Shown piece by piece: positions 10,029 to 44,369 of a DNA stretch of 64,000 nucleotides. Position numbers and translations under genes: made by a program. The notes under the pieces were generated by a model that was not told the DNA's origin, ran no database searches, and worked only from the letters and a program-made list of their open reading frames with translations. The DNA comes from a candidate division WOR-3 bacterium (GTDB taxonomy: Bacteria; Hydrothermota; 32-111), in the NCBI GenBank assembly GCA_039804205.1, contig JBDRZY010000003.1:23857-87856 (forward strand), given 5' to 3'. How positions within the stretch are numbered: position 1 is the first letter of the stretch; every line of letters starts with the position of its first letter.

Positions 10029-10029
10029 T

Positions 10030-13720: not shown

Positions 13721-13725
13721 ATATA

Positions 13726-13753
13726 TTGACTTGAAAAAAAATTATGTTAAGAT
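13726..13753 (+). promoter_or_regulatory. possible promoter of the MCP gene (TTGACT-16-TAAGAT)
   Basis: TTGACT at 13726-13731 and TAAGAT at 13748-13753. The -10 is weak and no clear RBS precedes ATG 13766. Confidence 0.25.
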
Positions 13754-13765
13754 AAACTATAAAAT

Positions 13766-27738: not shown

Positions 27739-28797
27739 ATGAAAAAATTTGTTATTTTATTTTTAATTTTTTGTGCATTTTCTCAAACATTGTTATCGTC
27801 TGAAAAATTCTATAGATTTTTGGATTTTGATCTGATAGGTAGAATCGATGGCAAAGAAAAGATTACAAAATCAGAATTTGAAAAGATAGAGGGTTATAAA
27901 ATATACTATGATAATAAAAAAAGACCAATTTCTATAGAAATCTGTTATAAAGGAAAACCTGTTGAAAAAGATATTTTTGATTGGAAAACCAACATTTCAA
28001 AAATAGAGATTTCCTATACTGACACATTTGTGAAGATAGAAGATGACAGTTTGTTTGCTGAAAAAATGGTTTATAGATTCTTTGATAGAAAAAATGAAAG
28101 TGTTAAAATTTTTAATAGGGCTGAAAAAATAGTTTTTGTGACTTTTGATACGAAAAAACATTGTTGTGAAAAGATTATTTCATATTATGAAGATGGGCTG
28201 GGAGAAAAGGTTCCATCTGTTGATTCTGTCCTGATAAAACTCACCACTATCGTTAAGAATAAAAATTCAACTAGATGGGAAGTAAATTTTTATAGTGTTG
28301 GAGAAAAGGGAAATCTATTTTTATCACCTGACATTCTTGGATTTGAAAAGATTGTTAGAATTCAAAAAAATGAAACTATCGTTGATTCGTTAAAATTCTT
28401 TAACAGGGAAGAATACATTGTTTTAAGTACCGAAAAGGTTGAGGAGGGAGATTTCCAGGGTACCAAGAGTCTAAAAATAAAGGAAGATTCTAAAGGTGAT
28501 CTTCAAAAATTTTACGAGTTAATTTTTTATGATGATATTGGATATGAGTTTAAAAAGATTTATCTTGATACACTTTTAAAACCTGTTGACATTGATTCAA
28601 ATTTTGCGACCAGAATAATCAAGAGAAATAGTAATTTTACATATGATAAAGTTGAATATTTTTCTTCAGATCCTCTATTAAAAGCAAAGATGCCTCCTTC
28701 GATGAAATATAATGGGTATCCTTTGTTTAAAATTTTAACAAAGAAATTTGTATACGATAAAGATTACAACCTTTTGGGAGTTGAAAAGATAGAATGA
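27739..28797 (+). CDS. hypothetical secreted protein
   Basis: ORF track, 352 aa. Signal peptide FVILFLIFCAFSQTLLSS. RBS AAGGGG lies 4 nt upstream. Overlaps the following GT4 gene by 4 nt. Confidence 0.5.
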   Translation: MKKFVILFLIFCAFSQTLLSSEKFYRFLDFDLIGRIDGKEKITKSEFEKIEGYKIYYDNKKRPISIEICYKGKPVEKDIFDWKTNISKIEISYTDTFVKIEDDSLFAEKMVYRFFDRKNESVKIFNRAEKIVFVTFDTKKHCCEKIISYYEDGLGEKVPSVDSVLIKLTTIVKNKNSTRWEVNFYSVGEKGNLFLSPDILGFEKIVRIQKNETIVDSLKFFNREEYIVLSTEKVEEGDFQGTKSLKIKEDSKGDLQKFYELIFYDDIGYEFKKIYLDTLLKPVDIDSNFATRIIKRNSNFTYDKVEYFSSDPLLKAKMPPSMKYNGYPLFKILTKKFVYDKDYNLLGVEKIE

Positions 28798-29918
28798 ATA
28801 TTCTAATAATCAATTGGAGAGATTTAAAAAATCCTCTGTATGGTGGTGCTGAAATTCATATAACAAAAATTGCAGAGCACCTTGCTAAAAAACATAAAGT
28901 ATTCTTCTTAACATCTGGTTATAAAGGTGCAAAAGATGAATCGATCAACAATGTTTCCTATATACATACCGGAAACGAATTGTTGTTCAACTATTTTGTT
29001 ACCTTTAAAATAAGAGATTTAGTTAAGGAAAAAAAAATAGATCTTATCATAGAGGATATAAATAAAGTTCCATTTTTTACGCCTTTACTTGTTAAGATTC
29101 CAGTTTTCGTTGTGGTACCCCATATTTTTGGAAAAACGATTTTTAAACAAACGAATTTTATTTTTGGAACCTATGTGTATCTTTTTGAAAAACCTATAAG
29201 GATTGTATATAAAAAATCCTATTTTGAGGTTATTTCAAATTCAACGAGAGATGATCTTTTAAAAAGAGGCATAGATGGGAAAAGGATAAAAGTAATAGAA
29301 TGTGGGATCGATAAAAGATTTTTTGGTTATGATTATCAAAAAAAAGAATACCCTCAGATATGTTATGTTGGAAGGTTGAAAAAATATAAATCTGTTCATC
29401 ACCTTATAAAAGCTTTCAAAAAGGTCAAAGAACAATGTAAGGAATGTGTTTTATACATTGTTGGAATGGGAGATTATGAAACTGAGTTAAAAAAATTGGT
29501 TAAAAGGTTAAGGATAGAGGATGTTATTTTTACAGGATATGTTCCTGAACATGAGAAGATAAAAATTTTACAGGAAAGCTGGATATCAGTATATCCATCC
29601 TATATTGAAGGGTGGGGCATAGTCAACATTGAAGCGAACGCACTTGGAACTCCCGTTATTTCATCAAATGTTTTAGGACTCAAAGATTCGGTTAAAGATG
29701 GATTTTCGGGTTTGCTTTATGAATATGGAAATATAGAACAACTTGCAGAGAAAATACTGACTCTTTTAAAGAATCGGGAAAAACTTAAACAGATGGAAAA
29801 TGATGCTAAAAAATGGGCAAAAAATTTTGATTGGGAAAAAACGAACAATCTTTCAGAAGATTTTATTGAAGATTTCATTACAGAAGTTGTAAAATCCAAA
29901 ACTATTGACAACAAATAG
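28794..29918 (+). CDS. glycosyltransferase family 4 (GT-B)
   Basis: ORF track, 374 aa. C-terminal GT4 signature EGWGIVNIEANALGTPVISSNVLGLKDSV (E-x7-E). Confidence 0.75.
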   Translation: MNILIINWRDLKNPLYGGAEIHITKIAEHLAKKHKVFFLTSGYKGAKDESINNVSYIHTGNELLFNYFVTFKIRDLVKEKKIDLIIEDINKVPFFTPLLVKIPVFVVVPHIFGKTIFKQTNFIFGTYVYLFEKPIRIVYKKSYFEVISNSTRDDLLKRGIDGKRIKVIECGIDKRFFGYDYQKKEYPQICYVGRLKKYKSVHHLIKAFKKVKEQCKECVLYIVGMGDYETELKKLVKRLRIEDVIFTGYVPEHEKIKILQESWISVYPSYIEGWGIVNIEANALGTPVISSNVLGLKDSVKDGFSGLLYEYGNIEQLAEKILTLLKNREKLKQMENDAKKWAKNFDWEKTNNLSEDFIEDFITEVVKSKTIDNK

Positions 29919-29940
29919 TTTAATAATTAAAATATATTTT

Positions 29941-31356
29941 ATGAAAAAAATTTTTTATCTTTTATTTCCCCTAATCACATTCGTTTTTGTTTTTCCACAA
30001 TGGAAAACACCGGTAAAAATATGGGAGTATGGACTCGCTTATTTTCAACCTAATGCTTCCCATCTTTTAGTAAAAGATACCCTTGGCAATTTACATCTTG
30101 GTTGGTACGATACTTCAAAAGATGTTTATTTTTGTATCAGAAAGTATAAATATGATGGAAACGAATGGCTGTATGATGGTATAGTTTATGATAAGCCGGA
30201 AAGTGGAACAGGATACTATCTTCTATCATGGATGCCAACACTGTCTGTTGATGAAGATGGTAGATTTTTGTTTCTCTGGGAAAGCAGACAGGATGGTAAC
30301 TTTAACATCTTTGGAAGATATTTTAATGGTGTTTTACTCTCTTCCATTTTTCAGGTGACAAATACAACTTCAAACTCATGGTATCCCAAATCCTTTTACA
30401 GAAACAAAAAACATCATTTTATCTATTGTGATGATTCAACAGGTGTGTTCAACATATACTATGGTTATTTTGATTCAACTATCCATACTCCTTCAAATAT
30501 AACGAACTCGGATAAAAGTTGTTTAAATTACGATTTTTATGTTTATCCAAATGAGGATATTTCACTTGTATACACTAAAATTAATAATGGATATCAAAAT
30601 ATTTTTAACAAAAGAAGAGTAAACAATCTATGGCAGAATGAAATTTCGATTTTTAGTTTAACAGCTGATATCTATTATCCCAACATAATTTCCGACGGTC
30701 AGAATGAATTTGTGGTTTTTACTATTTTGTTAAATGGATTGAGTCAACTTTATATTTCAAAATATTCGAATGGTATATGGTCAACACCTAAACTTTTGTC
30801 CGACGATAATTCGAATATCTATTATCCAACCGGTCTTATTTTGAACAACAAAATTCATCTGTTTTATGTTTCAGATAACTATTATTATGGAGAATTGTAT
30901 GAACTGGTTTATGACATATCAAATGAGGTTGTCGACAGCATAAAACTTATCGCTCGTCATGATACTTCTTATATTGCTACACCACAATGCATTCTGGATA
31001 AAGATGAAAACATTCATCTTGTTTATATACTTAACGATAAAACTCCCGCATCATCGTTCTGGCCTAACAACATTTACTGGACCTACTATACGGATTCCAA
31101 AAAATATTCTATGAATGAAGATTACAAAAAACCATACAAGTTGAGTAAAGAGAAAACAAAGATGGTTTTCGATTTTATAAATCAGGGAAATTACAGAATC
31201 TCTGTTTATGATGTATCCGGTAAAATGGTTGATAAATATTCAGTCTACTCGAAGAAGTTCATTTTAGATCAATCAAAATTTAAAACTGGAATTTATTTTT
31301 TAACTGTTGAAGAAGGTGAAAAAAGATGGAAAGAAAAGTTTTACAATTTAAAATAG
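29941..31356 (+). CDS. secreted beta-rich protein with C-terminal T9SS sorting domain
   Basis: ORF track 29905..31356. Start moved to ATG 29941 (MKKIFYLLFPLITFVFVF is a signal peptide). Repeated Y/W-rich strands suggest a propeller-like fold. The last ~65 aa (MVFDFINQGNYRISVYDVSGKMVDKYSV...GIYFLTVEE) match the T9SS CTD pattern. Confidence 0.6.
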   Translation: MKKIFYLLFPLITFVFVFPQWKTPVKIWEYGLAYFQPNASHLLVKDTLGNLHLGWYDTSKDVYFCIRKYKYDGNEWLYDGIVYDKPESGTGYYLLSWMPTLSVDEDGRFLFLWESRQDGNFNIFGRYFNGVLLSSIFQVTNTTSNSWYPKSFYRNKKHHFIYCDDSTGVFNIYYGYFDSTIHTPSNITNSDKSCLNYDFYVYPNEDISLVYTKINNGYQNIFNKRRVNNLWQNEISIFSLTADIYYPNIISDGQNEFVVFTILLNGLSQLYISKYSNGIWSTPKLLSDDNSNIYYPTGLILNNKIHLFYVSDNYYYGELYELVYDISNEVVDSIKLIARHDTSYIATPQCILDKDENIHLVYILNDKTPASSFWPNNIYWTYYTDSKKYSMNEDYKKPYKLSKEKTKMVFDFINQGNYRISVYDVSGKMVDKYSVYSKKFILDQSKFKTGIYFLTVEEGEKRWKEKFYNLK

Positions 31357-34300
31357 TTGTTCTTCTTTTTATCATATTAGGTTTTTCTCATTTATTTTCT
31401 TCATTTAATTATAGTTTTTCAGAAGAGAGTATAACCGTGAATTATTTTCCAAAAGAAAATGATTCTACAAAAGTTCTAATACTTCCACCTGTTGATTTTT
31501 CTTTAAATCTATATCCATCAAATTTAAAAGATATCGTTTTGGGAAAACCTTTCTTTTTTAAAGATTTTCAACTGCTTCCTTTAAAACCTTATAAAGAAAA
31601 ATATACTGTTACAGTTAGTTTCAAAAAAACAAAGAGTAGTGGAAAAATTATCTATCCTGATATAAAAACTGAAAAATTGTTAACATCTATAGCGATTAAT
31701 GGTAAAGATTTAAAAAATTTCATAAAGCCGAGGATAACAAAACAGGTTAAATCTTTAAGTTATGATGGAACACCTCTTGCAAAAATTAAAATAGGAGAAA
31801 ATGGACTCTACAGAATATACTATGATGATATCAAGAATAAAACTGGTATAGATCTCTCGACCTTTGATCCAAAAACTATAAAGGTTTACAACAGAAATAT
31901 TCAGATACCGATAAATATATATGGGACCAGTGATAATGTTTTTGGAGCAGGAGATTATTTTGAATTTTATGGTGAAAGAAAAAAAGGTGAGAACACTTAC
32001 TTTGATAAATTTCAACTCCAAAATGTATATGTTATAGTTGCTGGTGGAGGAAACGGGATAAGGTATGTTTTGGATAACCAGTTTATCGATGATTCTTTAA
32101 TAGATTCCACTATCAGTTCATATCTCTGTGAAGAACATATTGAAAATGATTCCTTTTATCAACCACTTGGGGGAAGAACAACAATTGATACATCCGACCT
32201 CTGGTTTATGTACTCAATAAATGAAACGACTCCTTATGAGAAGTACATAAATTTTTATGATTATGATACTCTTTATCAGAGTTTCAATTTTTCAGCATAT
32301 TTTCATGGATTTTCCTATAATCTTCTTTTGAATCCTGATCATGTTTTGGGTTTCTATATTAACGATTCTCTTGTTGATACTATAAAATGGGATGATCTTT
32401 CTCCATATAAATACTTAAAAAATTCTTTACAGTTTACAGGGGATTCTTGTAAGATTAAATTTCAACTCATAGGTGGTGACACGATAGGTGTTGGTCTAAA
32501 CTATTTTGAATATTCATACATGAGAAATCTTATTGTAAAAAATGGAAAACTTGACTTTAAAATCTCGAATCTGAATTTTGGTTCATACAAATTTCACATT
32601 AAAGGTCTCACTTCGACCGATATTAAAATATACAGGAAAGATTTGAAGAATATAACCAATTTCATAACGGTTTATGATCCAGTCCTTGGAAACTATGACC
32701 TTTATTTTACCGATCAGATTTTTACTTCTTCGGTTAACTATTCAGTGTATCAAAACACCTCTTTTCTTAAACCCGACACCATAGAGACCTTCAATTTCAA
32801 CAATCTCGATTCTCCGACAAATGCAGGAAATTATGTTATCATCGTTGATCAGAATCTGAAAGAAAAAGCGAAAGAATTCGCTGAACTTTTTTCATCGGAA
32901 AACAAAGTTTTTCTTGTTGGAACTGAAGAGATTTATGATGAGTTCAATTATGGAATGAGAGGTGTTAGGCCTATCAAAGATTTTTTGATCTCAGCATATA
33001 ATAACTGGAGTGTTCCACCAACACATGTTCTCCTTTTGGGTGATGGATCTTATGACAATAATAACCATTTAAAAATTTTTGATTACAGTATACCTGCAGC
33101 ATACTACTATGAAAATTCAGCATATTCAAGAGCTCTCATAGCATCTGACAACTATTATGCAACCATAGTGGGAGACGATCCTGTTGAGGATATATCGATT
33201 TCAAGGTTCCCTGTAAGAAACGAAAATGAAATTGATATCGCTATAGAAAAGGTTAAACATTATCTTGATTGGAAAAATTCAGGAATATTCAATCTAAAAT
33301 TTATATTTGCATACGATACAACCCCTCCTGGCGCTGGACTTCCTTCCTATGTTGATGCAAAGTACCAGTCACTCAAACTTGCATCGATGATGCCTGATTA
33401 TATTGGTGTTGATTTTATGGCCAATCTTTACGATAACAACGGTGATTTCATAAACCAGTTGAATTATGGAGCATCGATTTTGAACATATATGCCCATGGA
33501 GCTTCCCAATCTATAGGTAGTGGAGTTTATATCAGGTTAACCGATGTTTTGAGAATGAACAACATCAACAGGTTGCCTTTTGTGAAAGTTTATTCCTGTG
33601 ATACAGGTTATTATGATGAACTTTTGAGGGATCAACAGTCAATAGGGGAGGCATTCGTTCTCGCTCCTTTTGGTGGAGCGATTGCGTATTATGGATCAGC
33701 GACTGCAAGTACTGATAATCTTAACAACAGTTTGGGAGAATCAAATTTCAGACAGATCGCTTTCAATGGTATAAAAAACATTGGAGATATAATACTTTAT
33801 GGTGAGTTAAACTTTTTTATCAACAGCAGTGCTTTTGGTAGTTCAAATCTGGATGATCCTAATGTTTACGAGATAAAAAATTATGGGTTACTGGGAGTGA
33901 ATCTTCTGGATTTAAAGATACCTGATATCTCTGAAAAAACATGTTCACTTTCTTCTTATCAGATAGCACCCAAAGATACTCTTGTTGTTATACATTCAGA
34001 TTCGAATCTTAAGGATGGGTTCCTTGAGAGTGTTCTTATCGATACAGAGAGAAGAATGTTGATTTTTGATCATTCAAATCTTGTGAATGGCTATGGAGAA
34101 AATACTCTATATCTACCAGATTCTCTTCCCAATTCAACTATGGTTTTAGCAACAGTTGCTTTTACTGATGATACCTCAGTTCTTTATCTATCATATCCGA
34201 CTGTTGGAGGAGATGGTGTTAAAAGTTTTTCTATATCTCCTTCAAATCCTGATACCCTAACAGAAATCAGAATATATGCGAAGGTAGGTGGGAAAAACAT

Positions 34301-35831
34301 AAAAAATCTTTCAGCGAATTATAAATACCCAAATTCTACCTATTATTATACTGCAAATATGGTTCAGGATTCTGTTGATAGTTTACTTTTTTACACAAAT
34401 CTGTTACCACCGATAAAAGCAAAAAAAAGTTCGTACGATTATTTTTACTACTATATCTCTTATTCTGACTCAACAGAAAATATGAATTTTACAACTTTCA
34501 CAAAAAAGCTGTTGATTCCTCCTTATCCCGATGCGAAGGTTCTCCAAAAACCTTATCTGTCATTCAAAGATAAAAGTCCGGCAATAACAGTAAGAATTTC
34601 GAATGGTGGAGAAAGGGATATCAGTTCTATGCCAGTCCATTTTTATCATATAGATCAAAACGATGATACTCTTTTAATAGGGATTGATACTGTTTCGTTG
34701 AAAGGAGGAGAAACAAAAGAATCGAAGGTCAAAATTTCTAAAAATTATTTTGGAGAAAAAATCTATGTGTTTGCTGCAAAGGACACCTTAAGTTTCCCAG
34801 ACAGGAATTTTACGAACAACAGGGTAATTGAATCAGATTTTGATTACATTTACTCGTATATATATGGAAAACAGCCTTTTGATTCATCAATAACATATCA
34901 TTCCCTTTGTATTTTTAACAATGGACAGACAGACGATGATACGAATCTCATAATTGTTTCAAGGGACTCGTTAAAAAAGACAGATCAAAACATAGAAATA
35001 TTGAACATTGATAAACAACAGATGGATGTCTATAGAATAGATATTTTAAATCCTGATTATAGAAATGTTCTTTCACTTTATCCAGATTCAGAACTTCTCC
35101 CTGCGAATGTTTTAATGTACGATTCTCTTTCAAATAAGTTTGTTTTGAAGGGAGAGAAAAGAGAAGATACGATTCTTTTTGTATTTGAAAGGAATACTGA
35201 AAGATTTGTTATCGGGAGATGGAATGATACTGTTCCACCGGTTGTAAAAATCTTTGTCGAAAACAAAGAGGTCTACTATTCTACAATACTTGTTAACAAT
35301 ATAGATTTTGGAATTACCGTTGAGGATAATGAGGGAATCGACACCAGAAGTTTTTTGATTATGATGGATGATGATACTCTTTCTTCTGAAACTGATTATA
35401 AGGTTACAGAGGAAACAGTAAAAAAAACAATGCCAGTAAAAATTTCAAAATTTCTTGAAAATGGAGAACATACTCTTAAAGTTTACTGTAAAGATATTTA
35501 TGGAAATTCAACAGAAAAGGTGTTTGATTTTCAAGTTTCAAACCAGTTTAAGATCATCAATGTTGCAAATTTCCCGAACCCTGTTGTTGGGAAAAACACG
35601 AGGATAGTTTGTGAACTATCAAAAAATCCACAGTCAGCAATACTCAAAATATATAAATCAAGTGGTGAACATTTTAAAACTTATAATCTCTCATTTCTTA
35701 AAGATAGGTTTGTTTATGTTGATATCCAGATCGATGATTATAAAAATGGAACATATTTTTACTGTATAGAAGCAGAAAGTGATGGAGAAAGAGTGAAATC
35801 AAAAATCCAAAAGATGAGTGTAATAAGATGA
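31326..35831 (+). CDS. porU: PorU-like T9SS C-terminal signal peptidase candidate (peptidase C25/clan CD domain + own CTD)
   Basis: ORF track, 1,501 aa. Signal peptide present. The central region fits the C25/gingipain family (VIIVDQNLKEKAKEF...HVLLLGDGSYDNNNH...ISISRFPV). A His/Cys dyad is present (NIYAHGASQS ... VKVYSCDTGYYDE). The C-terminus FPNPVVGKNTRIVCEL...GTYFYCIEAESDGERVKSK has the T9SS CTD signature. The next gene is a FadL-like barrel, reproducing the porU-porV pairing. Confidence 0.55.
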   Translation: MERKVLQFKIVVLLFIILGFSHLFSSFNYSFSEESITVNYFPKENDSTKVLILPPVDFSLNLYPSNLKDIVLGKPFFFKDFQLLPLKPYKEKYTVTVSFKKTKSSGKIIYPDIKTEKLLTSIAINGKDLKNFIKPRITKQVKSLSYDGTPLAKIKIGENGLYRIYYDDIKNKTGIDLSTFDPKTIKVYNRNIQIPINIYGTSDNVFGAGDYFEFYGERKKGENTYFDKFQLQNVYVIVAGGGNGIRYVLDNQFIDDSLIDSTISSYLCEEHIENDSFYQPLGGRTTIDTSDLWFMYSINETTPYEKYINFYDYDTLYQSFNFSAYFHGFSYNLLLNPDHVLGFYINDSLVDTIKWDDLSPYKYLKNSLQFTGDSCKIKFQLIGGDTIGVGLNYFEYSYMRNLIVKNGKLDFKISNLNFGSYKFHIKGLTSTDIKIYRKDLKNITNFITVYDPVLGNYDLYFTDQIFTSSVNYSVYQNTSFLKPDTIETFNFNNLDSPTNAGNYVIIVDQNLKEKAKEFAELFSSENKVFLVGTEEIYDEFNYGMRGVRPIKDFLISAYNNWSVPPTHVLLLGDGSYDNNNHLKIFDYSIPAAYYYENSAYSRALIASDNYYATIVGDDPVEDISISRFPVRNENEIDIAIEKVKHYLDWKNSGIFNLKFIFAYDTTPPGAGLPSYVDAKYQSLKLASMMPDYIGVDFMANLYDNNGDFINQLNYGASILNIYAHGASQSIGSGVYIRLTDVLRMNNINRLPFVKVYSCDTGYYDELLRDQQSIGEAFVLAPFGGAIAYYGSATASTDNLNNSLGESNFRQIAFNGIKNIGDIILYGELNFFINSSAFGSSNLDDPNVYEIKNYGLLGVNLLDLKIPDISEKTCSLSSYQIAPKDTLVVIHSDSNLKDGFLESVLIDTERRMLIFDHSNLVNGYGENTLYLPDSLPNSTMVLATVAFTDDTSVLYLSYPTVGGDGVKSFSISPSNPDTLTEIRIYAKVGGKNIKNLSANYKYPNSTYYYTANMVQDSVDSLLFYTNLLPPIKAKKSSYDYFYYYISYSDSTENMNFTTFTKKLLIPPYPDAKVLQKPYLSFKDKSPAITVRISNGGERDISSMPVHFYHIDQNDDTLLIGIDTVSLKGGETKESKVKISKNYFGEKIYVFAAKDTLSFPDRNFTNNRVIESDFDYIYSYIYGKQPFDSSITYHSLCIFNNGQTDDDTNLIIVSRDSLKKTDQNIEILNIDKQQMDVYRIDILNPDYRNVLSLYPDSELLPANVLMYDSLSNKFVLKGEKREDTILFVFERNTERFVIGRWNDTVPPVVKIFVENKEVYYSTILVNNIDFGITVEDNEGIDTRSFLIMMDDDTLSSETDYKVTEETVKKTMPVKISKFLENGEHTLKVYCKDIYGNSTEKVFDFQVSNQFKIINVANFPNPVVGKNTRIVCELSKNPQSAILKIYKSSGEHFKTYNLSFLKDRFVYVDIQIDDYKNGTYFYCIEAESDGERVKSKIQKMSVIR

Positions 35832-36796
35832 GAAAAATTTTGATTTTTTTTATCATTTCTTTAAATTTAAAAATTTTTTCAAGTGATTTCCTATCCATTT
35901 TACCAACACCTGTTGGAGAAGGAGGTAAGGGTGCTGTTCTGACTTTCAGTTCTTCAAGGTTACCACTCTTTTACTTTAACCCTTCAAACTCTTCAAATAT
36001 GTTTGGTCAGCCAAGAAAAAGTTTTGTGCTTTTTTATGAACATAAATTTTTATTTTCTAATATATCAGATTATAACAACTTCTCGTTTCTGTTACCCGAA
36101 ATCAAAGGAGTGAATTTTGGTTTTCAAGTTTTAAACCAGAATATAAACGATATTCCGATCTATCCAGAATATTCTGATTCTGTTTCGTTTGTTCCCGAAG
36201 GATTTTTTTCAGATAACTGCTTTGCTGGAATTTTTAATTTTTCATACAGGACGAATGGACACAAAGATGAAAACTTTTATGAGTGGAGTTTTGGTGGAAA
36301 CATAAAATCGTTATATCAGAAATTGTATACGAATAGAGGTATAGGGTTTGGAATTGATCTTGGAATAACCGTTAAATTTTCATTTGATCATTTTAAATCG
36401 AAAATTCCTGGAATATTCTCCTTTTCATTCGTTTATAAAGATGTTGCAAAAACAAGAATTGTATGGGATACTGATTCCAACACTGTAAACTTGATAAAAG
36501 ACAGATTCTTTACAGCCCTATCCTATTCTATCGATATCCATAAAATAAAATCGAACATTTTTTCAGAAGTATCCTATGATCTTAATGATAAAAAACTCAT
36601 GACATCTTTGATTTATACCTATTCAAACATTATAGGTTTCAATATAGGTTACAACCAAAATCTTTTTGAAAGATCGGACATAAAAAATACTGGGTTCGGA
36701 GTATTTTTAAATATCTTGAATGGTTCAATTTATTATTCTCTATCAATATTTGAAATAGGTAACACGAACTCTATTGGAATCTCATATTTATTCTAA
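35828..36796 (+). CDS. porV: PorV/PorQ-family-like outer-membrane beta-barrel
   Basis: ORF track, 322 aa. Signal peptide present. Alternating-hydrophobic beta-strand pattern with a C-terminal aromatic (ISYLF). Sits immediately 3' of the porU-like gene with a 4-nt overlap. At 322 aa it is shorter than typical PorV, so PorQ-like is an alternative. Confidence 0.4.
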   Translation: MRKILIFFIISLNLKIFSSDFLSILPTPVGEGGKGAVLTFSSSRLPLFYFNPSNSSNMFGQPRKSFVLFYEHKFLFSNISDYNNFSFLLPEIKGVNFGFQVLNQNINDIPIYPEYSDSVSFVPEGFFSDNCFAGIFNFSYRTNGHKDENFYEWSFGGNIKSLYQKLYTNRGIGFGIDLGITVKFSFDHFKSKIPGIFSFSFVYKDVAKTRIVWDTDSNTVNLIKDRFFTALSYSIDIHKIKSNIFSEVSYDLNDKKLMTSLIYTYSNIIGFNIGYNQNLFERSDIKNTGFGVFLNILNGSIYYSLSIFEIGNTNSIGISYLF

Positions 36797-37740
36797 TGGA
36801 AATAAATGATATTTTGACTTTATCGGAAAATAAAAACTTTTTTGTAATATCAGGGAACTATTCTGAGGATATAAAAAGTATTATACAAAAGTTGAAAGAA
36901 AAATATATATCAACTGGTGCTGAGGATTTTGATTACTTCGAATTTTATATTGATGAGAATAACGAAGAAGAATTTTATAGTAAGATTTTAACACCTCCAT
37001 TTATCTCTGAAAAAAAAATTTTTGTCTTCAAAGATGGTTTAAAGATTTCTAAAAATTTTGCCGAAAGAATAGATGATTTAGCCTCTGGGCTTGAAAAAAA
37101 TATAATACTTATAATTCTTTGCATTGATGAAGAGGAACTTGCCCCATATGAGATAAAAAAAGTTTCTGAACAAAAATTCAAAAACGCACTTCATTTTTTT
37201 GTTGAGATGGATCCTCGCTTTCTTAAAAATATAAACATAAAACGAATAGTTGAGTTTGGAAAAGTTAGAGATATGGAAATAACTGATCTCATGGCACAAA
37301 AATTACTCGACTTTACTGATGGAAATATTTATTCTGTTTTTAACATAATCAACTCTTCATACATGAAAGGAGAAATTTTAACTTTAGATGATATTCAGAA
37401 ATTACAGGATAAAGTTGAATTTTACGATTCATACATTTTCGATTTTCTTAACAATCTATCGGAAAAAAGATTAAAGGAAACAATAATGTCGTATAGAAAA
37501 TGTCTTGAATGGAAACTTCTGACTAACGATGGACTTGTTATGATGCTTTTAAAACAATTCTCTGAAGCAAAAAAAAATGAAAAAAGCAAATTTAAAAATT
37601 GGGATGAAAAAGTGTTGAAAAAAAGTTTTGAAATAGTATATAATCTTTTAAGGGATCTAAGAAAATTCAATCAAAGGTATGGAACATTGTTAGTAGAAGA
37701 ATCTCTCATAAAAATAATAAAGGGGGAAGAATGGACTTAA
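36796..37740 (+). CDS. holA: DNA polymerase III delta subunit-like (HolA-like)
   Basis: ORF track, 314 aa. The N-terminal pattern FFVISGNYSEDIKSII...ILTPPFISEKKIFVFKDGLKIS fits the HolA N-terminal domain. Start overlaps the porV-like stop (TAATG). Confidence 0.4.
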   Translation: MEINDILTLSENKNFFVISGNYSEDIKSIIQKLKEKYISTGAEDFDYFEFYIDENNEEEFYSKILTPPFISEKKIFVFKDGLKISKNFAERIDDLASGLEKNIILIILCIDEEELAPYEIKKVSEQKFKNALHFFVEMDPRFLKNINIKRIVEFGKVRDMEITDLMAQKLLDFTDGNIYSVFNIINSSYMKGEILTLDDIQKLQDKVEFYDSYIFDFLNNLSEKRLKETIMSYRKCLEWKLLTNDGLVMMLLKQFSEAKKNEKSKFKNWDEKVLKKSFEIVYNLLRDLRKFNQRYGTLLVEESLIKIIKGEEWT

Positions 37741-38585
37741 AAAGTTTGATCTCAGAGAAAGAGGAACTTGAAAATAGAATGAAAAAACTTGAAGGAATGA
37801 AGGGACAGATAAAACTTGCGATCTATGAGAAGATCAAAAATGAATATGAAGAGAAATTGAAAAACATATTTGAACAGATTAAAAAGGATGCAGAATTTGT
37901 CAAAAGTGAGATAGAAAAGATAAATATAAATGAAAAAGAAATCAATGAAAAAATAAGCGGTTTAGAACTTGAAATAGAAGAATTAAATGTTAGAAGTATA
38001 CTTGGAGAGATTACATTAAAAGAGTTTGAAGAAAAAAAACAAATACTGGATAACAGAAAGAATGAATTAAATGATCAACTGAGAAAACTTCAGGAAGAGA
38101 AAAAGGAGTTAACCAAAATATTACCTGAAGAAAAAATGCCGATGGAACCTTCTCTGGAGCAGTTTAGAGAAAAAATAATTTATGAAAACAATCTGGTATA
38201 TCCTGAAAGTAAAATCGAAGCAAATTTTCCACCTATAGGAGAAAATATAAATGAAAATGTCCAACCGGAAGAACTGGACAGCAATTTATCTGAAAATATC
38301 AAATCTGCGATAGATAATATAATTCAACCTGACATTGTTAAAGAAGAAAAATTTTCTTTAGGGGAAGATCTCCCCAAAGAGGAAAAAATGGTTAAAGATA
38401 ATCCTCTTGAGATGAACAACAAAAAATATAAGAGTGAGGATGATCTTGTTTTTGAAAAAGATTTTGATGTCAACGTTAAGGAAGAAAACATTGAAACGAT
38501 TGAAGGTCTTGTATGTCCCAAATGTGGTCATATTAACAGATCAGATCTGTTTAACTGTGAGAAATGTGGAGCTGAACTTCTTTAA
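37731..38585 (+). CDS. coiled-coil protein with C-terminal zinc ribbon
   Basis: ORF track, 284 aa. About 140 aa of heptad-rich E/K sequence. Terminal CPKCGHINRSDLFNCEKCGAEL (CxxC-x11-CxxC). No TM segment. Confidence 0.5.
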   Translation: MDLKSLISEKEELENRMKKLEGMKGQIKLAIYEKIKNEYEEKLKNIFEQIKKDAEFVKSEIEKININEKEINEKISGLELEIEELNVRSILGEITLKEFEEKKQILDNRKNELNDQLRKLQEEKKELTKILPEEKMPMEPSLEQFREKIIYENNLVYPESKIEANFPPIGENINENVQPEELDSNLSENIKSAIDNIIQPDIVKEEKFSLGEDLPKEEKMVKDNPLEMNNKKYKSEDDLVFEKDFDVNVKEENIETIEGLVCPKCGHINRSDLFNCEKCGAELL

Positions 38586-39940
38586 TGGTGATTAGAAGTG
38601 TCACTTTTTATACCATATCAAATTACATAAATATTTTTTTATCGTTCATCCAGGGTTTTTTTCTTGTCAAAATGCTTTCACTCCAACAGATGGGAGAATT
38701 CAGTCAATTCAAAATTATCTTAAATTATCTTTTACTGTTCAATTTTGGTTTAACAAATTCTTTTCTTATCCTTCTTCCAAAAGTATCTGATAAAGAAAAA
38801 GAAATTTACAAAAATAAAATCTTTACAATAAATTCTTTAATTTTTCTTGTTATTTCTTTATTCCTGTCCCTTTTAGTTTTATTCCTTAAAAAAGAAATCT
38901 TTCTTTTTTTGTCCTTAACGCTCTTTTTTTATTCTGCAAAGGAGATACCCTTATACTATTTGAAATCCACAGGAGATTTTTCTAAATATTCAATAAATCT
39001 TGTTCTTTCACAGATCATACTTTTGGTTTTAACAATAGTTTTGACTTATTTTTTTGGTTTGAACGGAGCATACATTAGTTTTATTTTTTATTCCTTGTTA
39101 TCATTTGCTGTTGGTGTTATGTTTACAAAAGGTATTCGTTTTGAAACTTTCAATTTCGAGAATCTTTTGTTTTTTTTAAGAAAAGGATTTTCTATCTATT
39201 TCGTGGGACTTTTAAACCAGATAATCTCCAGTTTTGAAAGATTATTTTTAAGTTTTATTCTCATTAAAGAAACTTTTGCAATATATTCAACCGCAGTGTT
39301 TTTCCTTTCATTCGTTCAGATGTTACCTGTTTCGATAGTTCAATATTTTTTACCCGATTTTGTAAAAAATATAGATAAGTATTCTTGTAAAAGATTGAAT
39401 TTCTTTTTTATAACTATTTCGGTATTGACTTTTTTCTTTATAACCGTTTCATACGTTTTTTTGAAAATCGTTACAGGAAAGTTTTTAACGAATTATGTTG
39501 AATCGGTTAACATATTTTTAATACTTTCAATAACGATTTTTTTTGATATATTTTTTTACATAATGTTCAACAAACTCCTCTCAATAGAGAAGTTGAAATA
39601 CTATAACTACCTTCAAATCGCTGGTTCACTTTTGATTTTATCTGGTGTTTTAATTTTCTACATTTTTGAAAAAAAAATTGACATCGTTAAATTTTCATAT
39701 TATTTTTTAACTTTGAAAACTCTTTATTTTTTTATTTGGATACTTTTATCAAAATTTATTTTGAAAGCAAAAATTTTGAATTTGTTTTCTCTCGCTACCG
39801 TGCTGCTTTTTTCTTTGTTGATATTCTCATTTGAAAAATTGAATCTAAATCTTTTGATAGGTATAATCATTTTTATATGTTTTATATTTATTTTTGAGGG
39901 GAAAAAACTTGTATTATGGATGAGAAAAAATTTGAACTGA
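38585..39940 (+). CDS. Wzx-type polysaccharide flippase (polytopic membrane protein)
   Basis: ORF track, 451 aa with ~12 predicted TM helices. Lies in a glycosyltransferase operon. Start overlaps the preceding stop (TAATG). Confidence 0.6.
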   Translation: MVIRSVTFYTISNYINIFLSFIQGFFLVKMLSLQQMGEFSQFKIILNYLLLFNFGLTNSFLILLPKVSDKEKEIYKNKIFTINSLIFLVISLFLSLLVLFLKKEIFLFLSLTLFFYSAKEIPLYYLKSTGDFSKYSINLVLSQIILLVLTIVLTYFFGLNGAYISFIFYSLLSFAVGVMFTKGIRFETFNFENLLFFLRKGFSIYFVGLLNQIISSFERLFLSFILIKETFAIYSTAVFFLSFVQMLPVSIVQYFLPDFVKNIDKYSCKRLNFFFITISVLTFFFITVSYVFLKIVTGKFLTNYVESVNIFLILSITIFFDIFFYIMFNKLLSIEKLKYYNYLQIAGSLLILSGVLIFYIFEKKIDIVKFSYYFLTLKTLYFFIWILLSKFILKAKILNLFSLATVLLFSLLIFSFEKLNLNLLIGIIIFICFIFIFEGKKLVLWMRKNLN

Positions 39941-40767
39941 ATCTTATAGTTGTTTTATTTAAAAGAAAAAATGCCGAGCAATTTTTTATACATAATTACA
40001 AAATTTTAAAAGGAGGTAATGTCAAACTAATATTGGTAGATAATGGTGATAATGAAAGTGTTATTCCGAAAGGTTTAGAAACAACATATGTAAAAAATCA
40101 GGAAAATTATGGCTATGGTAAATCTGTAAACATTGCCTCATCTTTTGTCGAAACAGATTATTTTCTTGTATCGAATGATGATATTATTTTTGAGAGAGAA
40201 TTTTTTAAAAAACTCGAATGGAAGATAAAGGAGTATAAAGAAAAAGGTTATTCGATTGTTGGGTTCAATATTTTTTCAAATGTAAGTTTCAGGAAAGGTA
40301 TTCAAAAAAAATGTTATGATCCTTTTGTTATTCTCTATCACTTTTCATTTTTACCTTTTATTCTTTCACTTTTCGATAAAAAGAGTAATGGATATTTGGG
40401 TGTGTGGGAAGGGATTCATTTTTATAAAAGTTCAAAAGAGGTCTGTGGAGTTAACGGATCTTTGATGCTTATAGAAAAAAAATCTTTTGAAAAAGTTGGT
40501 AAATTTGATCCTGGATTTTTTTTAACCTATGAGGAAACAGATCTTTTTTTAAGATTCAGAAAACAGGGTTTTAAAATATTTTATGAGTCAGAATTAAAAG
40601 CGTTTCACAAACATAACCTTTCTGCATCAAGAGAATCTTTGAATTATTCTTTTAAATCTATGGATTATTTCCTTGAAAAACATTATGGGCAAAAGATAAA
40701 AAAACTTATAAATATCTATTTAAAAATATTTTTATTTTTTAAAAAAATGGTAAAATTAAACCGATGA
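39916..40767 (+). CDS. glycosyltransferase family 2
   Basis: ORF track, 283 aa. LNLIVVLFKR...KLILVDNGDNESV (DxD-type nucleotide-sugar site) followed by the GT-A catalytic region. Confidence 0.65.
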   Translation: MDEKKFELNLIVVLFKRKNAEQFFIHNYKILKGGNVKLILVDNGDNESVIPKGLETTYVKNQENYGYGKSVNIASSFVETDYFLVSNDDIIFEREFFKKLEWKIKEYKEKGYSIVGFNIFSNVSFRKGIQKKCYDPFVILYHFSFLPFILSLFDKKSNGYLGVWEGIHFYKSSKEVCGVNGSLMLIEKKSFEKVGKFDPGFFLTYEETDLFLRFRKQGFKIFYESELKAFHKHNLSASRESLNYSFKSMDYFLEKHYGQKIKKLINIYLKIFLFFKKMVKLNR

Positions 40768-42080
40768 GAAGGTTAGGAGTTTCAAATATCTTTAAATTGT
40801 TATCGATTTTTATGGCAATATCTTTTTATACGTTCTTTGCGGTTAAGGAAAAAAATTTATTTTTCGTTTTTCCTTTGGTGCTGTTTTTCATTATAGTTGT
40901 TTTTGATATAAAAAGTAAAAACAGTATTTCCTTTTTGTTTTTCTTATTGTTCTACGGATTCTTTTCGAGATTGTTTTATTTTTTCACAGCAGGGTATACC
41001 TATAATCTTGTTTTTCTTATACCTTTTTTCTATATTATTTTCTTTTTAAAAGAGATTTTTTATTCATTTTTGGATTTAACAAAGGAATTAAAACTATTTT
41101 TTTTACTCCATTTCCTTATAATACTTTACATGATAATTTTACCGCTAAAAACAGACATTTTTGATTTTTTCGTCCTTCTGAATCTTTACATTCTTCCTTT
41201 TTTCTTTTTTTTAAATTTTAAAAATTTTACTGTTGTGTTCAACAGGTTTCTTGTTTATCTTTTTCCTTTAACATTTTTTTATGCAGTGTTACAGTATTTT
41301 AACATTTATTTTTTGTCTGATATTTATTATGTTAAGAATGTCTCATTTTATCAATATACTTCCTTAAAACTTGGTAACTATTATAGACCCTTCTCAACTT
41401 TTTCATCTGTTGAAGAATTTTCCTGTTTTCTTGTTTTATCATTTATTCTTTTTCTTAAAAATAAAAATAGATTATCTATCGCTTTTTCTTTGATTTCGTT
41501 TTTTCTTGTAATACTTTTTTCGTTTCGAACGGCTATGTTTCTTGCAATATTTATGTTTTTTATTTTTCTTCTATTTGAAAAAAGGTATAAAACTTTTTTT
41601 GTTGTTTTTTTACTTTTTTTTATCTTAACTGAATCTTTATTAATTTTTGTTAAGATTGATACAACCGTGTATAAAGATGACAGCAGGCTTGAAACAATAT
41701 TAAAGCATAATGTCGAACCTTTCATAAGGAATTTTGAGACATATTCTCTGAAAAACAGAATACAAAAGGTAAAAAATGATATGGTTAATTTAAAGAGGAA
41801 ACCTTTTGGAGACGGTTTGTATCTTTCGAGTAAAGCTCTTGATAAAAATATCGATAAGAATAAGTATGAAACGAGTTTTCTGAATCTTCTATTCTCTGGT
41901 GGGTTTGTTTTCGTTTTATATTTTGTTCTTTCAGTTTGGATACTTTTTAGAAAGATCAATATTTTTACAATTTTTTACATTCTCCTTTTCCTCCTTTCAT
42001 CGTTGTTCAATTTTCATTTTGTTTTACCGGTCATTTTAAAAGTTTTGTTTGAGGAGTATGATGGATACAGAATCGATTAA
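40764..42080 (+). CDS. O-antigen ligase / Wzy-like polysaccharide polymerase (polytopic membrane protein)
   Basis: ORF track, 438 aa with ~10 TM helices. A larger periplasmic loop (residues ~290-370) is typical of Wzy/WaaL-family proteins. Confidence 0.5.
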   Translation: MRRLGVSNIFKLLSIFMAISFYTFFAVKEKNLFFVFPLVLFFIIVVFDIKSKNSISFLFFLLFYGFFSRLFYFFTAGYTYNLVFLIPFFYIIFFLKEIFYSFLDLTKELKLFFLLHFLIILYMIILPLKTDIFDFFVLLNLYILPFFFFLNFKNFTVVFNRFLVYLFPLTFFYAVLQYFNIYFLSDIYYVKNVSFYQYTSLKLGNYYRPFSTFSSVEEFSCFLVLSFILFLKNKNRLSIAFSLISFFLVILFSFRTAMFLAIFMFFIFLLFEKRYKTFFVVFLLFFILTESLLIFVKIDTTVYKDDSRLETILKHNVEPFIRNFETYSLKNRIQKVKNDMVNLKRKPFGDGLYLSSKALDKNIDKNKYETSFLNLLFSGGFVFVLYFVLSVWILFRKINIFTIFYILLFLLSSLFNFHFVLPVILKVLFEEYDGYRID

Positions 42081-43341
42081 AGAATATCAGATAAAAAAAT
42101 ATATTTTGTCAGTTGAAAAAGTTGAACATTTTTTAAATCTCTATCCTGAATTTAAGAATTTAAAATATTCTTTGTTATGGGCGACTTTTGACAGTGTATC
42201 AAGAAAATTTTTATACAGGAAAAAAAAGAAAAATTTGTTTTCAATAAATCTAAAAATTAAAGATCCAAAAGGACCATTTTTTTTGAGTTTTGGAAACCTT
42301 CCATCGAGTATACGGGATAAATTTTTTGAAAAAAAGATAAATAATATAACTATAAAAATCACAAACAGTCCTTTTGGATTTTTTGATGGACAAAATCTTG
42401 TTTATTCGAGAATAGGAAGATTTCCGATTTCGATTAAAATAGTTGATAGAGGATACGAAATGGAGAATCTTTATAAAGATATAGTTCAGGACAATTATTA
42501 CGATCTTGAAAGATTTAACAAATTACTTCAAAAATATTTTTCAAAAAATTTACCTTTATTCGTGTTGGTGGATGAAGACAGAACAAAATTCAAACAGATT
42601 CTTGTAGAATATTTCAAAATGCAGGGTGTAAAAACATTTGTTTTTCAACATGGTATTACACCAATTTCTGAAAGTGGTTTACCTATGATAAAAGAATCTT
42701 TTGCTCCTTTGAATGCTGATTTTTTCGTGTGCTGGGGAAATGCCTCGTATCTTTATTTAAAGAATTTTATTCCTGAAAACAGGATAATAATAGGAGGTAA
42801 TCCTGATTTTGAGATCAACTGTGATAAAACTGAGAGGGACATAGATCTCCTTTTGATAGATCAACAGTTTATAGGGTTTGAAGAGGAATTTGAATATGTT
42901 TATAAAAAAATTGCAGAAATGCTTGAAGGTTTAAAGATCAACTATAAAGTATATCTAAGGAATGAGTACAACTTTCATTTTTTGAAAAAAATTTTTTCAG
43001 AAAGTAAACTTATAAGATGGAAAAAAGGAAAAATTAAGGAATTCATAGGAAGATCTAAAATTATTACAGGTTTTTATTCAACAGCACTTCTTGAAGCGAT
43101 GTTTTTCTGTAAACCTGTAATGGTGATAGATTTTCTTAACAGAGGAGATTTTTTAGGATTGACAAAAAGTGGAATGGCGGAGATAGTTTCAGATGAAGAT
43201 GATTTTATAAGATTGTATAAAAGATTTTCTGAAAAAAGTTTTGATAAGGATTATGTTGGGAACAGATTGAAATTTTTTGTAGAACATTTTGGTGAAACTT
43301 CCTCAAATTTTATAGTTGAAAAAATTTTGGAAAGATTATGA
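42049..43341 (+). CDS. polysaccharide biosynthesis protein, GT-B-like fold (TagF/capsule-synthesis-like), uncertain
   Basis: ORF track, 430 aa. The C-terminal Rossmann-like segment (GFYSTALLEAMFFCKPVMVIDF) resembles GT-B enzymes. No confident family call. Confidence 0.35.
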   Translation: MRSMMDTESIKEYQIKKYILSVEKVEHFLNLYPEFKNLKYSLLWATFDSVSRKFLYRKKKKNLFSINLKIKDPKGPFFLSFGNLPSSIRDKFFEKKINNITIKITNSPFGFFDGQNLVYSRIGRFPISIKIVDRGYEMENLYKDIVQDNYYDLERFNKLLQKYFSKNLPLFVLVDEDRTKFKQILVEYFKMQGVKTFVFQHGITPISESGLPMIKESFAPLNADFFVCWGNASYLYLKNFIPENRIIIGGNPDFEINCDKTERDIDLLLIDQQFIGFEEEFEYVYKKIAEMLEGLKINYKVYLRNEYNFHFLKKIFSESKLIRWKKGKIKEFIGRSKIITGFYSTALLEAMFFCKPVMVIDFLNRGDFLGLTKSGMAEIVSDEDDFIRLYKRFSEKSFDKDYVGNRLKFFVEHFGETSSNFIVEKILERL

Positions 43342-44369
43342 AAAGAATTACTTTTGTTGATCTCTCCCCCTATAGAGGTGGAGCTGAAATATCACTCGAA
43401 AAGTTGATAAATATTCTTGTTGAGGATTTTGATATTAAAGTGTTAGTTGCAGATAAGAGGATATGGAATTTTAATAAAAATGTTAAAATTGAAAAAATCT
43501 CCATAAAAAGAGAAACTCTTCTTTTAAAAAAAGATTTAAAGAATCTTATTCTTTTTTTAAAGGAATCTGTGGATGCCTTAAAAATGATTGATTTGACATC
43601 CGATATGATCATCACAAACACTTTTAAATCACATATTTTGATTTTTTTTTACAAATTAAAATATCGCAATTTCAAATGGATCATTTTCGAAAGAGATATG
43701 TACGAAAACGGAATGATAAAAGTATTAAAAAGATTTATTTACACTTTTTCATACCAAACAGTTTTTAACTCCAATTTTTTAAAAACAAGGTATGGATTAA
43801 AAAACGGAAAAGTTTTGTACAATATCGTTGACAGAGTGGAAGAGTGTGCGAAGGATTTTAAAATATTTTTGTATTTCGGTGATCCAACATATGAAAAAGG
43901 ATATGATAGGATTTTTGAAGTTTTTGAAAGGATTAAAAGTGTTATGGGCGATGCCAAATTGATAGTTATAAAAAAGGAAACAGGTTTTTTTGGAATCGAA
44001 TACATGAAAAAGCACGATTTCAAAGAAGTGATTTTTAAAAATTATGAAGAAGTTGAAAATGTTTTGTCGATCGCTTCTTTTTTATTATTTTTTAACAGGA
44101 GAACAGAAACTTTTTCGAGAGTTGTAGCGGAAAGTATGGCGTCTGGTGTAATTCCTTTACTTTTGAAGGGAAATGGTATGGATGATTATGTGAAAACTGG
44201 TTATAACGGATTAGTTTTTGAATATTATGATCCTGAAGTTATCGTAAAAAAATTTTTTGATTTTTACAGTAAAGAAGATCTAACAAAAATTTCTAAAAAC
44301 TGTCAAAGAGTTGTTTTGAAATGCTTTTCAAGTGGAAAGATAAAGAAAGATTTTATAAGTTTATTGTAG
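43338..44369 (+). CDS. glycosyltransferase family 4-like (GT-B)
   Basis: ORF track, 343 aa. RVVAESMASGVIPLL...GYNGLVFEY resembles the GT4 C-terminal donor-binding domain. Confidence 0.55.
   Translation: MKRITFVDLSPYRGGAEISLEKLINILVEDFDIKVLVADKRIWNFNKNVKIEKISIKRETLLLKKDLKNLILFLKESVDALKMIDLTSDMIITNTFKSHILIFFYKLKYRNFKWIIFERDMYENGMIKVLKRFIYTFSYQTVFNSNFLKTRYGLKNGKVLYNIVDRVEECAKDFKIFLYFGDPTYEKGYDRIFEVFERIKSVMGDAKLIVIKKETGFFGIEYMKKHDFKEVIFKNYEEVENVLSIASFLLFFNRRTETFSRVVAESMASGVIPLLLKGNGMDDYVKTGYNGLVFEYYDPEVIVKKFFDFYSKEDLTKISKNCQRVVLKCFSSGKIKKDFISLL

Follow-up and report, generated by a model that had tools for sequence, protein, structure and literature searches.

In a 64-kb stretch of DNA from a metagenome-assembled genome (MAG) of a candidate division WOR-3 bacterium (contig JBDRZY010000003.1; this whole stretch is called the window below), three adjacent plus-strand genes at positions 29941-36796 encode a propeller protein with a C-terminal sorting domain (CTD), a cysteine peptidase of family C25 and a short outer-membrane beta-barrel (genes 1, 2 and 3, respectively). 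We think it likely that this locus is the CTD-processing and attachment module of a type IX-style pathway, in which a PorU-like cysteine transpeptidase would be tethered and fed by a PorV-type barrel. The module is probably a strongly divergent variant of the system known from Bacteroidota in a lineage new to that system, rather than a system of a new kind. The features concerned are the following (gene limits from the list of open reading frames, ORFs).

Gene 1: 29941..31356 (ATG, 471 aa) or from 29905 (TTG, 483 aa), plus strand; signal peptide, seven-bladed beta-propeller (GH145/PL42-like fold) and C-terminal type A sorting domain of type IX secretion systems (T9SS)
Gene 1 CTD: ~aa 409-467, nt 31165-31341, plus strand; PF18962 / TIGR04183
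Gene 2: 31326..35831, plus strand, 1,501 aa; PorU-like C25 cysteine peptidase with signal peptide, PorU-type N-terminal region (~aa 150-500), C25 domain, immunoglobulin (Ig)-like segment and probable CTD
Gene 2 C25 domain: aa 503-857, nt 32832-33896, plus strand; PF01364 Peptidase_C25, 181.8 bits
His724 of gene 2: 33495..33497, plus strand; candidate catalytic histidine (IYAHGAS), from alignment A4 (see below) and 6ZA2
Cys758 of gene 2: 33597..33599, plus strand; candidate catalytic cysteine (VYSCDTG), from the same two alignments
Gene 2 probable uncleaved CTD: aa 1415-1501, 35568..35828, plus strand; NFPNPV...GTYFYCIEA...KMSVIR, sub-threshold PF18962
Gene 3: 35828..36796, plus strand, 322 aa; outer-membrane beta-barrel of ~14 strands, from an AlphaFold model (pLDDT 79.7) and profile comparisons

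Source and structure of the locus

A sequence-only reading of this DNA had described three consecutive plus-strand genes, a set of motifs and a 4-nt overlap between genes 2 and 3, all of which are present. The motifs VIIVDQ, LLLGDGSYDNNNH, SRFPVR, IYAHGAS, VYSCDTG and FPNPV...GTYFYCIEA were located in gene 2, and gene 3 ends in ...ISYLF. For gene 1, the ATG at 29941 is the start of a 100%-identical database protein (P0186). Genes 1 and 2 overlap by 31 nt, while genes 2 and 3 overlap through ATGA, a junction by which they are predicted to be translationally coupled. The stop codon of gene 3 and the start of the following holA gene share TAATG. The G+C content of 29941-36796 (~30%) resembles that of the remaining window.

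The nearest database proteins are identical to the products of genes 1 and 3 and 92% identical to that of gene 2. Their source MAGs all bear the name candidate division WOR-3 bacterium, and the earlier suspicion of a little-studied lineage outside Bacteroidota was therefore correct. A relative at 65% identity carries the name TA06, and the NCBI taxonomy name for the WOR-3 phylum is Caldifarciminota.

The C25 peptidase

Gene 2 has a C25 core with an intact His/Cys dyad, as had been proposed. Its closest solved structure is PorU of Porphyromonas gingivalis (6ZA2), on whose GHGG and TATCD motifs His724 and Cys758 fall. Both residues are invariant in an alignment extending from the WOR-3 orthologs to the annotated PorU of Raineya (A4), and the P. 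gingivalis PorU cysteine aligned with Cys758 is the residue mutated as C690A (PMC5562754). The top NCBIfam model for gene 2 is that of PorU (NF033707; 209.1 bits, E = 8.5e-62), matched over profile positions 7-708 of 1,095, i.e. over the region N-terminal to C25 as well as over C25 itself. Gingipains align only with the core (aa 605-776), the region before C25 aligning with PorU instead. Moreover, the C25 propeptide domain PF08126 was not found in gene 2 with Pfam and was found in more distant, cargo-like homologs (P0024-P0031). Compared with Raineya PorU in A4, gene 2 has an additional region of ~400 aa (~aa 870-1290) and an additional N-terminal segment of ~150 aa.

The C-terminal tail of gene 2 is probably a CTD. 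Scanned alone, this fragment matches PF18962 with 19 bits (E = 0.0017), under the cut-off of 27; it also aligns with the Raineya PorU tail in A4, and the ortholog P0020 has a precomputed PF18962 match. A second, weak match between gene 2 and 6ZA2 joins both C-terminal tails (10.2 bits). Of the PorU-like character proposed for gene 2, the layout and the rank of the PorU model stand, whereas all PorU and PorU2 cut-offs were missed and the score turned out to be unspecific, as detailed below.

The short barrel

The 15 close homologs of gene 3 are all unannotated, and a PDB sequence-profile search with gene 3 gave nothing useful. Weak matches to models of the PorV/PorQ family (E from 1e-3 to 1e-4) were obtained in some orthologs. 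With a profile of 14 orthologs (A1), 448 proteins were found at E <= 1e-3 among 1.8 billion representatives. Among the relatives sampled, 77 out of 82 match both the PorV/PorQ model NF033709 and the PorV2 model NF052325, 74 match PorQ and 64 match PorV (NF033710); the best E values are 1.9e-71 for NF052325 and 1.2e-17 for NF033710. The nearest outgroups of gene 3 are above the PorV/PorQ cut-off of 90 bits (P0046, 117.8 bits; P0047, 106.1 bits). In hhalign comparisons with canonical PorV (alignment A5), A1 aligns over its full length (266 columns, E = 7.6e-5) and a broader alignment of the barrel family (A2) reaches a probability of 99.9% (E = 1.5e-36). The best structural match of the gene 3 model is PorV of Flavobacterium johnsoniae (6H3I chain F), with 11% identity.

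Because of this structural and profile evidence, and without a direct model match, we assign gene 3 to the PorV/PorQ superfamily as a remote, short member, in sequence and in its predicted fold. The earlier designation as PorV/PorQ-like thus holds for family membership by fold and profile, but no curated PorV, PorV2 or PorQ cut-off is reached. By sequence, PorV and PorQ are not separable for this protein; its gene position is that of porV.

Gene 3 might also encode a FadL/TodX-type channel for the uptake of hydrophobic compounds, with the protease as a neighbour by coincidence. The fold alone is common to FadL and gene 3. However, PF03349 (FadL/TodX) has no match in gene 3, an hhalign control against Escherichia coli FadL gave a probability of 0.3%, against the full-length match with PorV, and 77 of the 82 relatives match PorV/PorQ models. 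In addition, the ATGA overlap and the synteny with C25 genes across phyla (next section) argue against a chance adjacency of the two genes. This explanation is therefore extremely improbable.

PF03687 (UPF0164) was also matched by 30 of the 82 barrel relatives, and one protein of Candidatus Edwardsbacteria is annotated as a UPF0164 family protein (these are members of A2, e.g. P0046). We take UPF0164 to be a Treponema family of FadL-like outer-membrane proteins; in that case, there may be a continuum between the PorV/PorQ superfamily and barrels from organisms that lack T9SS.

Gene order across phyla

When 185,579 species genomes were scanned with the peptidase alignment, 515 relatives were obtained; the best 79 distinct loci among them were analysed and their ORFs searched with barrel profiles. 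A PorV-family barrel lies directly 3' of the C25 gene in close WOR-3/TA06 relatives (L001-L006), Calditrichia, Kryptonium, Cloacimonadota, Neomarinimicrobiota, Gemmatimonadetes and canonical Bacteroidota. In the canonical Bacteroidota loci, this barrel is a true PorV by score (404-498 bits). The porU-porV-like gene order claimed for the window is thereby supported, the barrel gene being in the porV position and the order being common to canonical loci. No barrel was found, in these best 79 loci of 515 relatives, after the long C25 genes of Ignavibacteria/Chlorobi or after those of MAGs outside the Fibrobacteres-Chlorobi-Bacteroidetes (FCB) group. The scores of the pairs are as follows (PorU cut-off, 420 bits).

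Arcicella: PorU 1,338 bits; barrel PorV 404 bits
Gemmatimonadetes: PorU 627 bits; barrel PorV/PorQ family 256 bits
Cloacimonadota, Calditrichia and Marinimicrobia long forms: PorU 275-340 bits; barrel PorV/PorQ family 74-88 bits, just under 90
WOR-3 window: PorU 209 bits; barrel without direct match

On this score gradient, the WOR-3 pair is the most divergent of the long PorU-like and short PorV-like pairs that lie outside the curated models. In every long-form C25 protein scanned, the PorU model outscores the PorU2 model.

Some loci show other arrangements of C25 genes. At six loci of Bacteroidales MAGs (L046, L058, L060, L069, L072 and L084), two or three PorU paralogues of ~1,150-1,300 aa each are arranged in tandem; a PorV-family barrel was found in L069 alone, after the last copy, and none in the other five loci. 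In the 43%-identity relative (L004), a second C25 gene of 1,083 aa lies on the opposite strand ~5 kb upstream of the module (positions 1-401 of this locus, minus strand) and is absent from the window.

Specificity of the PorU score and weight of the assignment

Several results weigh against the assignment of this locus to a type IX pathway. The first concerns a control set of C25 proteins from the genome survey without adjoining barrel, found in MAGs labelled Ignavibacteriaceae, Planctomycetota, Chloroflexota, Pyrinomonadaceae (Acidobacteria) and Latescibacterota and in one distant WOR-3 genome (loci L010, L013, L022, L049 and L064 among them). These proteins reach 225-342 bits on NF033707 over the same profile span as gene 2. 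The PorU-type N-terminal region seen in gene 2 (positions 7-708) is thus equally present in barrel-less C25 proteins of non-FCB MAGs and does not discriminate sortases from other C25 peptidases. The layout combining this region with C25 characterizes a broad superfamily, and a sub-threshold PorU score alone therefore does not identify a type IX sortase. We accordingly rejected the PorU-model score as proof of PorU identity, and the case for a PorU-like function of gene 2 rests mainly on its partner barrel and on the CTDs. The control proteins themselves reflect either a wide PorU-like superfamily beyond the T9SS-bearing phyla or the contamination of some bins.

The other points are of several kinds. 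Gene 2 is under both curated equivalog cut-offs (209 vs. 420 bits for PorU; 124.5 vs. 450 bits for PorU2, NF052324), and gene 3 has no Pfam or NCBIfam match at E <= 0.1, the PorV2 model NF052325 (cut-off 325) included. In a rough neighbour-joining tree, the WOR-3 C25 proteins group in a clade of their own and not with the canonical PorU proteins of Bacteroidota and Gemmatimonadetes. The barrel superfamily includes UPF0164 and FadL-like members of organisms without T9SS. A distant WOR-3 locus (L016) has a C25 gene and a propeller homologue and no barrel within its 19.6 kb, even in a relaxed search. Finally, no match to SprA/Sov, PorK, PorL, PorM or PorN was found with NCBIfam among the 26 window ORFs scanned, which lie outside 44.4-58.7 kb (the cell-division cluster) and 60.6-63.2 kb (three ORFs).

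According to one alternative, gene 2 would be an ordinary surface or secreted degradative C25 protease, itself a cargo, with the barrel as its private anchor or export helper, and the pair would process no other CTD proteins. PorU scores that are alike in many C25 proteins without PorV partner, in phyla without T9SS, would fit such a protease, as would the position of the WOR-3 clade outside the canonical PorU clade, the second C25 gene near the module in L004 and the length of gene 2, which exceeds canonical PorU by ~350 aa and includes the additional ~400-aa region. However, the tight coupling of C25 gene and barrel is the porU-porV arrangement, kept across at least seven lineages. PF08126, present in the cargo-like homologs, is missing from the Pfam matches of gene 2, and the region before C25 aligns with PorU and not with gingipains, whose similarity is limited to aa 605-776. 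We consider this alternative unlikely and retain the attachment module as the preferred reading.

Alternatively, the locus could be an autonomous device for type IX sorting, like those that NCBI names PorU2/PorV2, acting on CTD proteins with far fewer core components or with neither the classical SprA translocon nor the PorKLMN motor. The barrel relatives match PorV2 more strongly than PorV (77 vs. 64 of 82), gene 2 also matches PorU2, no core T9SS gene was found among the window ORFs scanned, and a close relative on a 1.39-Mb contig suggests a small genome. Nevertheless, the PorU2 score of gene 2 is far under its cut-off, gene 3 has no direct PorV2 match and PorU scores above PorU2 in every long-form protein scanned. 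Absence from 64 kb is also uninformative for a genome of more than 1 Mb. Such a device is highly unlikely in our view, and a PorU/PorV-type module within a type IX-style pathway remains the reading that we favour.

The propeller protein and other probable CTD-bearing proteins

The tail of gene 1 is above both cut-offs, with 32 bits for PF18962 (cut-off 27) and 29.8 bits for TIGR04183 (cut-off 23), and gene 1 does end in a CTD, as the sequence-only reading had stated. Its AlphaFold model (pLDDT 78) shows a seven-bladed propeller and a small beta-sandwich, the fold being nearest to the glycan-cleaving propellers GH145 and PL42. In all close relatives (L001-L006), down to 43% barrel identity, gene 1 directly precedes the C25 gene. 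It is thus a conserved partner of the C25/barrel pair in the WOR-3 clade and not an arbitrary cargo.

The architecture of PorZ comprises two propellers. Gene 1 has no match to the PorZ model NF052228, and we rejected its identification as PorZ since there was neither a match to this model nor a specific structural similarity. In L016 (positions 7698-13801), a weak gene 1 homologue (E = 4e-17) lies 5' of a 1,409-aa C25 gene, whose tail weakly matches the C-terminus of the PorZ model (28 bits).

The predicted signal peptide of the gene 1 product is followed by a Gln-Trp pair (..VFS/P-Q20-W21) that is invariant in 7 out of 7 orthologs (window 29941-30010), and a 352-aa ORF upstream of gene 1 has AFS-Q (window 27739-27810). 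The glutamine recalls the Bacteroidetes 'Q-rule', i.e. the formation of an N-terminal pyroglutamate after cleavage by signal peptidase I.

A further candidate substrate of the module is encoded at the beginning of the window.

3,133-aa repeat-rich surface protein: 627..10028, plus strand; probable type A CTD, from repeat and tail matches

This protein contains many Reelin_subrepeat-B (173 bits summed), Kre9_KNH Ig-like, CHB_HEX_C (chitobiase-C) and BNR segments. Its C-terminal 120 aa, scanned alone, match PF18962 with 23.6 bits (E = 6.4e-5), under the cut-off of 27. Within the 64 kb, one CTD is thus above threshold (gene 1) and two are probable (gene 2 and the 3,133-aa protein), so that the earlier count of three CTD proteins is firm for gene 1, the other two being sub-threshold. 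With a CTD profile built from the clade and one Raineya PorU tail, no additional CTD proteins were identified in the window, and the tail of the 3,133-aa protein was missed.

Proposed pathway and type IX core genes

The attachment roles of PorU, PorV, PorZ and PorQ and the anchoring to anionic lipopolysaccharide (A-LPS) have been described in P. gingivalis (PMC5562754). By analogy with this species, CTD-bearing proteins would first be exported, the candidates being the gene 1 propeller, the 3,133-aa protein and the peptidase itself. The 322-aa PorV-type barrel would then bind the CTDs of the cargo at the outer membrane and would also tether the 1,501-aa peptidase via the peptidase's own uncleaved CTD. 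Finally, the peptidase would cut the CTD from the cargo with His724 and Cys758, and would probably link the C-terminus so formed to a glycolipid of the cell surface, produced by the glycosyltransferase, flippase and polymerase genes around the module. It is possible that these glycan genes are the source of the surface anchor glycan, on the model of A-LPS anchoring in Porphyromonas (PMC5562754).

A SprA/Sov-type translocon would presumably be encoded elsewhere in the genome. In 84 loci of relatives (~20 kb each), there was no other giant ORF usable as a SprA query. Several FCB phyla, WOR-3 not among them, are listed as possible T9SS carriers (PMC11285876). Our literature search found no paper joining WOR-3 with T9SS or type IX secretion and nothing relevant on PorU2/PorV2 as a family or on Caldifarciminota, and a paper on Cloacimonadota (PMC8542988) gives no T9SS gene detail.

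A more specific scheme would be a pared-down CTD sorting system in small-genome WOR-3. A long PorU-like transpeptidase would be held by a short PorV-type barrel, gene 1 would take a glycan-presenting role like that of PorZ/PorQ and feed in an anchor glycan made by the operon, and PorK, PorL, PorM and PorN might be dispensed with. Together with the pairs of Cloacimonadota, Calditrichia and Marinimicrobia, this would constitute a third PorU/PorV lineage outside the curated models. We regard this scheme as quite unlikely.

Neighbouring genes

The three genes belong to a co-directional string composed of a GT4 glycosyltransferase, gene 1, the peptidase, the barrel, holA, an unknown gene, a Wzx-like flippase, a GT2, a Wzy_C-like gene, an unknown gene and a GT1. 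Relatives show the same order, the glycan-assembly neighbours being kept down to 43% barrel identity. The following assignments rely on Pfam matches of the window proteins and of their orthologs, and on TIGR01128 for holA.

GT4 glycosyltransferase: 28794..29918, plus strand; directly upstream of gene 1, PF00534 (156 bits) and PF13439, position conserved
holA (DNA polymerase III delta): 36796-37740, plus strand; TIGR01128 54.7 bits (below 80), PF06144 30.2 bits (above 21)
Downstream glycan-assembly genes, as a whole: 38585..44369, plus strand
Wzx-like flippase: 38585-39940, plus strand; PF01943 27.1 bits, just below the gathering cut-off of 28.2, listed unmarked on orthologs in L001-L003
GT2 glycosyltransferase: 39916-40767, plus strand; PF00535 on syntenic orthologs (L001-L004)
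Wzy_C-like membrane protein: 40764-42080, plus strand; PF04932 (weak) on syntenic orthologs (L001-L004)
Unknown gene: 42049-43341, plus strand
GT1-family transferase: 43338-44369, plus strand; PF00534 on syntenic orthologs (L001-L004)

The start of holA lies within the barrel stop codon and its position is kept in all relatives; a replication gene is therefore embedded in a string of surface-assembly genes.

Elsewhere in the window, the ORFs of 676, 852, 180 and 214 aa (11690-13720, 17030-19588 on the minus strand, and 10553-11721) matched nothing significantly in Pfam or NCBIfam. The gene mix reported earlier is right for PyrR and for a methyl-accepting chemotaxis protein, but the 852-aa ORF called EndoQ-like matched no family, with a sub-threshold Pfam match of 18 bits alone. 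Among the lineage marker genes named, Rho and RsmH were recovered (as was MraZ), while FtsZ is supported through Tubulin/FtsZ_C matches on the relatives' syntenic gene only. The promoters said to match the sigma-70 consensus are not supported, as sites of this type are at chance level between 27 and 45 kb (101 vs. 94.6 +/- 8.1 in shuffled sequence). One 11/12 sigma-70 match (29905-29933) stops 8 nt short of the ATG of gene 1, which by itself is not evidence.

Implications

If our reading is correct, the PorU/PorV attachment module reaches the candidate phylum WOR-3, a lineage in which such a module has not previously been discussed. In kind, such a finding was to be expected; its use lies in the detail, as it reveals an unrecognised barrel subfamily. 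It also exposes an annotation gap: the long PorU-like and short PorV-like pairs of lineages outside Bacteroidota are under every curated model, and their barrels are now called hypothetical. For genome surveys, a caution follows: type IX secretion should not be deduced from sub-threshold PorU matches, the informative marker being a linked PorV-family barrel. Should the pathway of these small genomes be reduced, it could help to define the minimal parts for CTD-dependent surface attachment.

Comparison with known systems

Gene 2 resembles PorU, the C-terminal signal peptidase/sortase of T9SS (P. gingivalis PG0026; NF033707; 6ZA2), by its C25 fold with the His/Cys pair at aligned positions, by the PorU-type region before C25, by its Ig-like segment and CTD-like tail, and by its location directly 5' of a PorV-family barrel gene. 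It differs from PorU by its length (1,501 aa vs. ~1,070-1,370 aa, from first Met to stop, in the canonical Bacteroidota PorU ORFs compared), by its low identity (~23-24%), by its score of less than half the cut-off and by the two segments missing from Raineya PorU.

Gene 3 shares with PorV (6H3I chain F; NF033710/PF19572) and PorQ (NF033711) a FadL-type barrel of ~14 strands, in a gene position like that of porV. With PorV it also shares an N-terminal G...NP motif, in which G34, N51 and P52 are nearly invariant in A2 and the N-P pair is invariant in A5. In contrast, gene 3 has 322 aa vs. ~390-430 aa, lacks a segment of ~60-70 residues of canonical PorV and directly matches none of the curated PorV and PorQ models.

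A beta-propeller and a CTD occur together in gene 1, as they do in PorZ of P. gingivalis (NF052228), the attachment-complex subunit that delivers A-LPS, and gene 1 is, in addition, genetically linked to the sortase-like gene. It has one propeller instead of two and no match to the PorZ model.

Close parallels to the WOR-3 pair are the long/short pairs of Cloacimonadota, Calditrichia, Neomarinimicrobiota and Kryptonium (L008, L011, L012, L014, L035, L055 and L081), in which a C25 protein of ~1,560-1,710 aa (first Met to stop) is directly followed by a barrel of 332-354 aa. Their barrels match the WOR-3 barrel profile (E from 1e-9 to 1e-36), and all these pairs are under the PorU, PorU2, PorV and PorV2 cut-offs. 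The WOR-3 pair differs from them by its lower PorU score (209 vs. 275-340 bits), by a barrel without direct match, and by two flanking genes missing from the other pairs, a conserved propeller-CTD gene of its own (upstream) and holA (downstream).

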